A model generated the notes under the pieces. That model was not told where the DNA came from. It saw only the letters and a list, made by a program, of their open reading frames with translations, and made no database searches. Below are positions 23,063 through 24,452 of a DNA stretch of 64,000 bases, in pieces (the first letter of the stretch is position 1; each line of letters starts with the position of its first letter). Source of the DNA: Eledone cirrhosa (Eukaryota); contig OZ024743.1 in the NCBI GenBank assembly GCA_964016885.1, positions 353,710,001 to 353,774,000 of the forward strand, read 5' to 3'. Made by a program: the position numbers and the translations under genes.

Positions 23063-24452
23063 TAAATATAAGTATGTATACGTACATACATATATGTATA
23101 CAGACGTACAGTAGTATGTATATATATATATATATATATATATATATATATATACATGCACATATATATATATGTACGTATGGATTCACCGAACATTTAT
23201 TATAATGCTCGGTGTGTTTGTAAACAAGCATCCCGAATTAAACCGTACAGTGTCTAGCAACCATCGTTGCACATTTGTTCAACACTGACAAAGGAACGCT
23301 GTACTAGTTTCAAGCTTATTAGCTATCGTCAGCAACGTGTACCTTCCTGCCAGATGGTTGAACGTCTGAAAGTATATACTTTCCTTATGCATATTAACGG
23401 CTGAGCAGCCTAATTTGCATATCGAGTGAGTTAATCTATCTCTCTCTCTCTCTCTCTCTCTCTCTCTCTCTCTCTCTCTCTCTCTCTCTCTCTCTCTCTC
23501 TCTCTCTATATATATATATATATATATATATATATTTATGTATATATATATATATATGTATATATATGTATATGTATATATATGTATATATATATATTAT
23601 ATATATGTATATATATATATATTATATATATATATATATATATATATATATATATATATATATATATATATATATATACATATATATAAGTATGTATACG
23701 TACATACATATATGTGTACAGACGCACAGTAGTATGTATATATATACATACATGCACACACATATATGTACGTATGGGTTAACCGAACATTTATTATAAT
23801 GTTCGGTTTGTTTGTAAACAAACAGCTCGAATTACGCAGTACAGTGCTCGGCAACCATCGTCGCTCCTTTATTCAACACTGACACAGGAACGATGTACTA
23901 GTTCCAAGCTTATTAGCCATCGTCAGCATCGTATACCTTTCTGTCAGATGATTGAACGTCTGAAAGTATATACTTTCCTAATGCATATTAACGGCTGAGT
24001 AGCCTAATTCGCATATCGAGTGAGTTAGTCGGCCGGGCATACCGAAAACGATAATATCACTCGATATGCAAATTAGGCTACTCAGCCGTTAATATGCATA
24101 AGGAAAGTATATATTTTCAGACGTTCAATCATCTGACAGAAAGGTATACGGTGCTGACGATAGCTAATAAGCTTGAAACTAGTACATCGTTCCTGTGTCA
24201 GTGTTGAATAAAGGAGCGACGATGGTTGCCAAACACTGTACTGCGTAATTCGGGATGTTTGTTTATAAACAAACCGAACATTATAATAAATGTTCGGTAA
24301 ACCCATACGTACATATATATATGTATGTATGTATATATATACATACTACTGTACGTCTATATACATATATGTATGTACGCATACATACTTATATTTAGGT
24401 ATCAGCCGTACTAAGAGTGAGAAATGAAATTTCGTTTCATTCTTTTCCATTT
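23063..24452. mobile_element. 422-nt HHR repeat family, locus A: minus copy (23063-23436), microsatellite, then an inverted pair (23688-24054 minus / 24057-24452 plus)
   Basis: Three unit copies, each with a hammerhead: 23296-23338 minus, 23890-23932 minus (GGAA mutant), 24148-24190 plus. Confidence 0.85.
24148..24190 (+). ncRNA. Type I minimal hammerhead
   Basis: acggtg CUGACGA uagc-uaauaa-gcuu GAA ACUAGU A catcgt. Confidence 0.85.

Follow-up and report, generated by a model that had tools for sequence, protein, structure and literature searches.

The 422-nt hammerhead-bearing unit found in the window (the whole 64-kb stretch of DNA that was analysed) is probably a non-autonomous Penelope-like element (PLE), i.e. 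an animal non-LTR retrozyme, which is copied by the protein of a (TA)n-targeting PLE and twin-primed at two fixed sites. Its placement as an ordinary repeat of a known class, the retrozyme-type non-autonomous PLE, is well supported, and the window presents a retrozyme with the full PLE integration signature. The signature itself (two sites, inverted insertion, (TA)n target and uncleaved template) and the PLE origin of retrozymes have already been published. The window adds a one-tail rule across approximately 7-9 families together with TA microhomology at the untailed end. This yields two predictions that can be counted: a single tail in each inverted insertion, and overlap with TA at both start sites.

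Anatomy of the locus and its six pieces

The window consisted of AT-rich, animal-type DNA that is dense in microsatellites. It contained a small non-coding mobile element with a unit of approximately 422-430 nt and a type I hammerhead motif in each unit, distributed as six pieces (copies A-F; Table 1). The strand bearing the hammerhead is termed sense, and unit positions are numbered from the predicted hammerhead cut. A unit length of 422 nt, as given in the preliminary description of this DNA, was found in the 51-kb array, whereas units of the B/C/F type are several nucleotides longer. The coordinates confirmed that the antisense copy B is fused to the sense copy C and that copy A is a separate minus-strand copy; the PLE-style inverted configuration described earlier was present at 23688-24452 and also at 50586-51820. 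Copies B and C differed at 16 of 306 sites, and the B-C inversion is therefore not a read fold-back artefact. The divergence of copy A was 10.3% from B and 4.9-5.3% from the units of the 51-kb array, which indicates that it is a separate insertion of another subfamily. Divergence between the arms within insertions was 2.5-5.2%, and the junction between D and E showed a 3-nt CAA overlap.

The predicted ribozyme cut was spanned by five of the six pieces, and two pieces were longer than one unit. Since five of the six cross the cut site, the template had been uncleaved or re-ligated. Differences between the units of one insertion were mostly private (13 of 16 in B/C, 12 of 14 between the two units of copy F, F1 and F2, and all in D/E), indicating that the units were near-identical at the time of insertion. 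Variants shared between insertions were considered as a sign of a heterodimer template but were not used as such, as 3 of 16 (B/C) and 2 of 14 (F1/F2) differences were of this kind, which is compatible with recurrent change.

Table 1. Coordinates of the 422-nt family, its hammerheads and the measured inverted insertions in the window
Feature	Positions	Strand	Remarks
Inverted insertion	2349-2563		tail 94 nt
Inverted insertion	2603-2802		tail 41 nt
Inverted insertion	2920-4292		tail 40 nt
Inverted insertion: comparator PLE, 5'-truncated, protein-coding	13656-16146	.	same inverted, one-tail, (TA)n-bounded layout; tail 40 nt
Inverted insertion	20465-20791		tail 99 nt
(TA)n target run, 3' end of copy A	23032-23062	.	
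Copy A	23063-23436	-	0.87 unit, 5'-truncated; 3' end ~4 nt beyond site 1; 5' end adjoins (GA)n run
Hammerhead core of copy A (CUGANGA...GAAA...UA)	23302-23332	-	intact
Compound (TC)n/(TA)n microsatellite between A and B	23437-23687	.	left target of inverted insertion
Inverted insertion B/C	23688-24452		tail 62 nt
Copy B	23688-24054	-	inverted untailed arm; 3' end = site 1, 5-nt TATAT overlap with target
Hammerhead of copy B	23896-23926	-	core GAAA changed to GGAA
Junction insert, 2-nt TA	24055-24056	.	joins B and C head-to-head (5'-to-5')
Copy C	24057-24452	+	tailed arm, 0.93 unit; 3' end = site 2, 3-nt TAT overlap
Type I hammerhead of copy C	24148-24190	+	predicted cut after 24184
62-nt tail, site 1 to site 2	24390-24451	+	
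(TA)n target run	24453-24765	.	distally degenerate
Inverted insertion	25945-26254		tail 98 nt
Inverted insertion	26426-26618		tail 80 nt
Inverted insertion D/E, second of the 422-nt family	50586-51820	.	tail 61 nt
Copy D	50586-50837	-	tailed arm
Copy E	50835-51820	+	2.3 units, untailed arm
Inverted insertion	53008-53401		tail 100 nt
Copy F	55321-56035	+	1.67 units, 5'-truncated; 3' end = site 1; reference for read mapping
Inverted insertion	56062-56447		tail 104 nt

Two fixed 3' ends within (TA)n runs

A (TA)n run abutted the 3' end of every one of the six pieces. Site 1 (catacTT|ATA) formed the end at 23688 (B), 51820 (E) and 56035 (F), and approximately 4 nt further on at 23063 (A), while site 2 (ccRtTT|ATA) formed it at 24452 (C) and 50586 (D). 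With four ends at site 1 and two at site 2, the six ends fell into two clusters, in agreement with the earlier proposal of two internal junction points; the sites are 61 nt apart, at unit positions 212 and 273, and thus lie away from the hammerhead cleavage site, as had also been stated. The chance of six ends falling in two clusters or fewer was 7e-5 with uniform positions. Under TA-based nulls, the same clustering had a chance of 0.0009 when all 22 TA runs in the unit (alternating-TA runs of at least 3 nt each) were taken as usable and of 0.0016 when the runs were weighted by length. Site 1 overlapped (TA)n by 5 nt and site 2 by 3 nt, the latter being matched by 14% of random positions. Two TA runs of 14 and 9 nt, located 50-90 nt upstream of site 1, were used by none of the six ends (P ~0.06 when taken alone). 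The junctions are accordingly TA-containing, as the preliminary description held, but the two sites are not the TA-richest patches of the unit. No clear target-site duplication could be observed, and such a duplication is not readable inside a (TA)n repeat.

The 5' ends of copies A, B, C, D, E and F corresponded to unit positions 296, 272, 303, 20, 80 and 355, respectively. That of copy B lies on site 2 (position 272 against 273).

Evidence from public sequencing runs

The 20 candidate runs included no RNA run. Four of them were mapped onto one natural unit, 55430-55875 of copy F, with 55516-55560 masked. Loose ends were evaluated on the best six rows of each run (1,028 further rows). Among these best six rows, (TA)n followed 55666 (site 2) in 70 contigs of organism A (run X1) and in 53 contigs of organism B (run X4), so that the two organisms share the exact base of site 2. 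In the RAD run of organism A (X18), (TA)n followed site 1 in 5,676 reads among the best six rows, a figure that counts reads and not loci. Both ends are thus in use outside the window, where their spacing is again 61 nt. The RAD subfamily with site 1 carries a T-to-C change at 55605, which reduces the overlap with (TA)n to 'AT' (2 nt). Because site 1 is kept with this 2-nt overlap and the longest TA runs of the unit are unused, the ends represent fixed sites and not any TA-rich patch. Site 1 was absent among the best six rows of X1, X4 and X5, and X5 (84 records) had neither site among its best six rows. No loose end at the ribozyme cut (~55822) was present among the best six rows per run. Neither random junctions nor a single fixed 3' end, the two patterns named beforehand as contrary to the proposal, appeared in the window or in the best rows per run.

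Tandem arrays were evident from read joints going back 395-424 nt. A candidate third end at 55644-55645 (16,387 and 11,714 RAD reads) was rejected as most likely a restriction or ligation artefact, because it lies on an AATT site and the RAD molecule ends at 55641, 55708 and 55711 also coincide with AATT sites. For the same reason, no use was made of RAD joints between opposite strands, each of which had 1-5 start places.

One tail per inverted insertion

Self-comparison of the window revealed 25 local inverted hits, 11 of which were measured after selection by eye as head-to-head arrangements flanked on either side by (TA)n. The excluded hits comprised SINE pairs, short palindromes without (TA)n bounds, internal duplicates, and the hits at 12775-13102, 1753-2127 and 47188-47370. 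All 11 measured insertions, belonging to approximately 7-9 families, were tailed at one end and untailed at the other, the tails being 40-104 nt long. If each end chose independently between two equal sites, this outcome would be expected about once in 2,000, for insertions that were picked by eye. The overlap of the untailed end with (TA)n was 3, 1, 7, 2, 5, 5, 3, 3 and 6 nt at nine junctions, for which duplicate family members were dropped and the tailed arm shows how the element continues. The mean of 3.9 nt compares with 1.08 nt under the null (0 of 100,000 simulations, nine junctions). When two junctions that looked related by eye were also dropped (seven left), the overlap had P = 4e-5. 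One of the 11 untailed ends overlaps by 1 nt only.

The comparator PLE at 13656-16146 encodes a 5'-truncated ORF (13994-14959) with a GIY-YIG domain (PF01541, E 6e-7) and an upstream CX4CxxC motif, a motif type that has been linked to (TA)n targeting in Neptune-like PLEs (PMC8557442, in part). The two copies of this family, 2920-4292 and 13656-16146, are young, with arms 99-100% alike, and carry their tails on opposite sides. No sequence match was found between the comparator PLE and the 422-nt unit, and the 64-kb window contained no autonomous PLE or pLTR sharing the unit sequence. A PLE frame was found neither upstream of copy F (54150-55330) nor after copy E, and the unit had no PLE RT/GIY-YIG ORF; ORFs of at least 120 aa touching the units were microsatellite read-throughs only.

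Hammerhead motif and folding

The hammerhead of copy C consisted of a 6-bp stem I, a stem II with a basal U-U and a 2-bp palindromic stem III. The core (CUGANGA and GAAA) and three stems, again with a 6-bp stem I and a 2-bp palindromic stem III, were present in all seven copies that span the motif, with one core change, in copy B, whose hammerhead is probably inactive as judged by its sequence. Alignment of the seven copies revealed that 91% of cells were paired, with the U-U at the base of stem II in five of the seven. The core varied at N7 and H17, and one stem I pair alternated between G-U, U-G and A-U; covariation was limited to 1 of 13 stem pairs in these seven related copies. Rfam gave no match in the window at the gathering score, and none of its 103 weak matches around the locus was a hammerhead, most being TA-rich miRNA models. 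As Rfam does not detect the hammerhead, the call rests on motif and pairing. Scans of viral and metagenome contigs with the hammerhead pattern returned no hits in either set, and no match was found in the phage collection.

Tandem units with two consecutive hammerheads were located in each of the stretches 50835-51820 and 55321-56035. Hammerheads with a short stem III have been described as dimer-dependent and weakly active (PMC4209133, in part), and by analogy the stem III of the unit is to be regarded as this weak, dimer-dependent type. The monomer fold had a z score of -6.25, which may be inflated by self-complementary TA-rich sequence. In the predicted tail hairpins, site 1 lies at the loop of one and site 2 just past the second; folds of three tail stretches (z of -3.6, -1.1 and -1.4) gave weak evidence for them, one of the three being significant.

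Comparison with known retrozymes and PLEs

Animal retrozymes have been described as tandem repeats with a type I hammerhead that occur as circular transcripts and probably depend on PLEs for their mobilisation (Cervera and de la Pena 2020, PMC7229834, in part), and they derive from pLTRs of PLEs according to the accessible text of Li et al. 2026 (10.64898/2026.07.22.740005). The unit resembles animal non-LTR retrozymes in its non-coding, AT-rich tandem organisation with one type I hammerhead each, in its occurrence as monomers to multimers and in its co-occurrence with PLEs. When compared by description, the basal U-U of stem II and the 2-bp stem III resemble axolotl HHR_Amex2 (PMC7229834, in part), and the length of 422-430 nt is marginally above the 170-400 nt given for published retrozymes in the text available. 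Fixed 3' ends, tails, inverted insertions and (TA)n targets of retrozymes are not described in the available parts of PMC7229834 or 10.64898/2026.07.22.740005, where mobilisation by PLEs is argued from co-occurrence and sequence trees and not from insertion junctions. An octopus repeat annotation lists PLEs, and its available text makes no mention of hammerheads or retrozymes (PMC13282606).

PLEs form inverted 5'-truncated copies, often with a 30-40-bp tail at one end, in (TA)n targets (PMC8557442 and PMC3846280, in part). The insertions studied here resemble those of Penelope/Poseidon, Neptune and Naiad, as far as these are described in the accessible sources, in their partial tandems, head-to-head truncated copy, single tail, (TA)n target without a visible target-site duplication and hammerhead in the repeat. 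Unlike endonuclease-containing PLEs, the unit has no ORF. Compared with the 30-40 bp in the published portions available, tails reached 61-62 nt in the 422-nt family and 40-104 nt across the families of the window; a single tail was present in 11 of 11 insertions, whereas the same sources word it as 'often' or 'optional'. How PLEs form tandem and inverted insertions and tails is described as unresolved in the available part of PMC8557442. The literature searched, which included few subscription papers, yielded no rule of strictly one tail, no account of TA microhomology at the start sites of PLEs and no mapping of retrozyme junctions; such reports may be in print.

In vitro, the tail of the anole Poseidon element PAc is bounded by two adjacent internal start sites, and genomic ends fall there (Frangieh et al. 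2024, PMC11167929). Nicking and extension occurred on both strands of AT-rich DNA with an uncleaved multimeric RNA as the substrate, ribozyme cleavage being dispensable, and initiation took place at a stem-loop with an AC-rich loop that has no homology to the target (PMC11167929, in the portion available). The PAc start, as reported there, thus lacks target homology, whereas the sites in the window have TA overlap above chance.

L1 twin priming uses both target strands as primers and joins the inverted 5' piece by microhomology. Its first primer lies at the poly(A) end and its second priming site varies, with little overlap between the two pieces. In contrast to L1, both sites are fixed here and both arms copy the same unit sequence.

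Proposed mechanism and alternative explanations

The PLE-type ends and layout suggest, by analogy, that a PLE enzyme copies the unit. We infer a protein partner, a double nick, primer pairing over the TA overlap and the following order of events. The RT/GIY-YIG protein of a (TA)n-targeting PLE would probably act in trans on the unit RNA and would nick a (TA)n run on both strands. Each nick would leave a free 3' end, and these two ends would then prime reverse transcription internally, one at each of the fixed sites that bound the structured 62-nt tail, and this priming may be helped by 2-7 nt of TA pairing. With uncleaved multi-unit RNA as the template, the two 5'-truncated cDNAs would be joined head-to-head into an inverted insertion that has its tail on one side only.

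The preliminary description had proposed that nicked (TA)n anneals to TA-rich patches of a circular or multimeric RNA. Pairing of this kind is in line with the TA overlap above chance (3.9 vs 1.08 nt), but the two sites are positionally fixed, like the published pair of PLE start sites (PMC11167929), and longer runs are ignored in the window. That homology alone would direct (TA)n to whichever TA-rich patch of the RNA is available is very improbable: it accounts for the overlap at the untailed ends and for copy A, which ends a few nucleotides off site 1 at another TA, whereas just 2 of 22 TA runs, 5 and 3 nt long, are used, site 2 falls on an identical base in both organisms, and site 1 is retained with a 2-nt overlap despite the T-to-C change. 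It is rather unlikely that the sites are instead DNA cut sites, at which a TA-preferring endonuclease trims the cDNA at its TA motifs before the ends join nicked (TA)n. Such trimming would produce the TA overlap without RNA pairing and would account for the 5' end of copy B at site 2 preceded by TA; the tail is ascribed to endonuclease resolution in the available part of PMC8557442, and the anole PLE cuts AT-rich DNA, its own terminal region included (PMC11167929, in part). However, the tail boundaries were mapped in vitro as reverse transcription start sites (PMC11167929, same portion), and the 14- and 9-nt TA runs should also be cut, yet are unused in six of six ends. An origin of the ends after insertion, by slippage or recombination of internal TA patches with flanking microsatellites, or by assembly error, is largely refuted. 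The genome is full of unstable (TA)n and an internal TA run of copy A has expanded; erosion, however, would favour the longest TA runs and not one end of each kind in 11 of 11 insertions, and the same junctions occur in independent contigs and reads, with arms that differ by 2.5-5.2%.

As for the template, crossing of the cut site in five of six pieces and the two pieces longer than one unit agree with the circular or multimeric RNA proposed earlier, but a circle is neither shown nor needed, since linear multimers exist as arrays and the protein-coding PLE in the window makes the same layout. Permuted starts and greater-than-unit lengths were likewise found (six different 5' ends; 1.67 and 2.3 units), and tandem arrays fit them equally. 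A ribozyme-made monomeric circle, round which reverse transcription from the two sites would run to give such lengths and permuted 5' ends, is an unlikely template. The near-identity of units within an insertion would be expected from a circle, but it would equally follow from a homogeneous tandem array, and the reads do contain arrays, with joints going back 395-424 nt. Animal retrozymes have been reported as circular RNAs (PMC7229834, in part) and the monomer folds well (z -6.25), whereas the stem III is of the weak, dimer-dependent type and the fold score may be raised by TA-rich self-complementarity. The 5' end of copy B coincides with site 2, the position that a second primer would occupy on the same circle; against this, the chance that one of six 5' ends would fall within 3 nt of site 2 is ~10%, copy E passes site 2 twice, and a linear protein-coding PLE gives the same layout.

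It is distinctly unlikely that twin priming is carried out by a dimer of the PLE protein on a single retrozyme RNA, which may be a monomeric circle, with each nicked strand pairing over 2-7 nt at one of the two fixed sites that flank the tail hairpins; an inverted insertion would then always have a single tail. On such a circle, the cDNA of copy B would have started from site 1, gone round once and been halted at site 2 by the partner primer. If true, the PLE tail, the inverted repeat and the targeting of microsatellites would all follow from one rule, and the junctions would provide sequence-level evidence that circular retrozyme RNAs integrate by PLE target-primed reverse transcription. Copying of uncleaved multi-unit RNA from two fixed sites by a PLE protein remains the preferred explanation.

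Other repeats in the window

Seven of the measured insertions are small (starting at 2349, 2603, 20465, 25945, 26426, 53008 and 56062), and four of these have hammerhead-like cores; they are probably relics of several PLE families. A likely twelfth inverted insertion occupies ~1680-2127; judged by eye, it has a single tail and overlaps TA by ~7 nt. At 12775-13102, inverted arms surround an internal microsatellite and the right end lacks a clean (TA)n. Partial relatives of the 56062-56447 and 2349-2563 families were located at 47092-47370 and 48265-48331, respectively, and the latter ends at an (AC)n run and not at (TA)n.

A frameshifted PLE ORF fragment with CX4CxxC (tblastn to the 14-kb ORF, E 2e-8) was present at 45855-46990, followed by a hammerhead-like motif at 46946; related sequence occurs inverted at 8376-8515. 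On the minus strand, a direct repeat with a ~340-nt period (87% alike) spans 4436-5035; it has (TA)n to its left and a hammerhead-like motif at 4977, and is possibly another retrozyme family. The segment 55068-55320, flanked by a (TA)n run and by copy F at its 5' end, contains a hammerhead-like motif at 55216 and may be another PLE-derived piece in tandem with F.

An abundant ~190-nt interspersed repeat, probably a SINE, was found at 2145, 5774, 10070, 12097, 18395, 22270, 32535, 52685, 54003 and 63630, and a 249-nt palindromic copy of it at 37878-38126. The 223-aa open frame at 44032-44703 had no Pfam match at E 0.01, and we take it to resemble a transposon-derived protein fragment. A 21-nt minisatellite of ~30 copies (65% matches) occupies 57215-57851.
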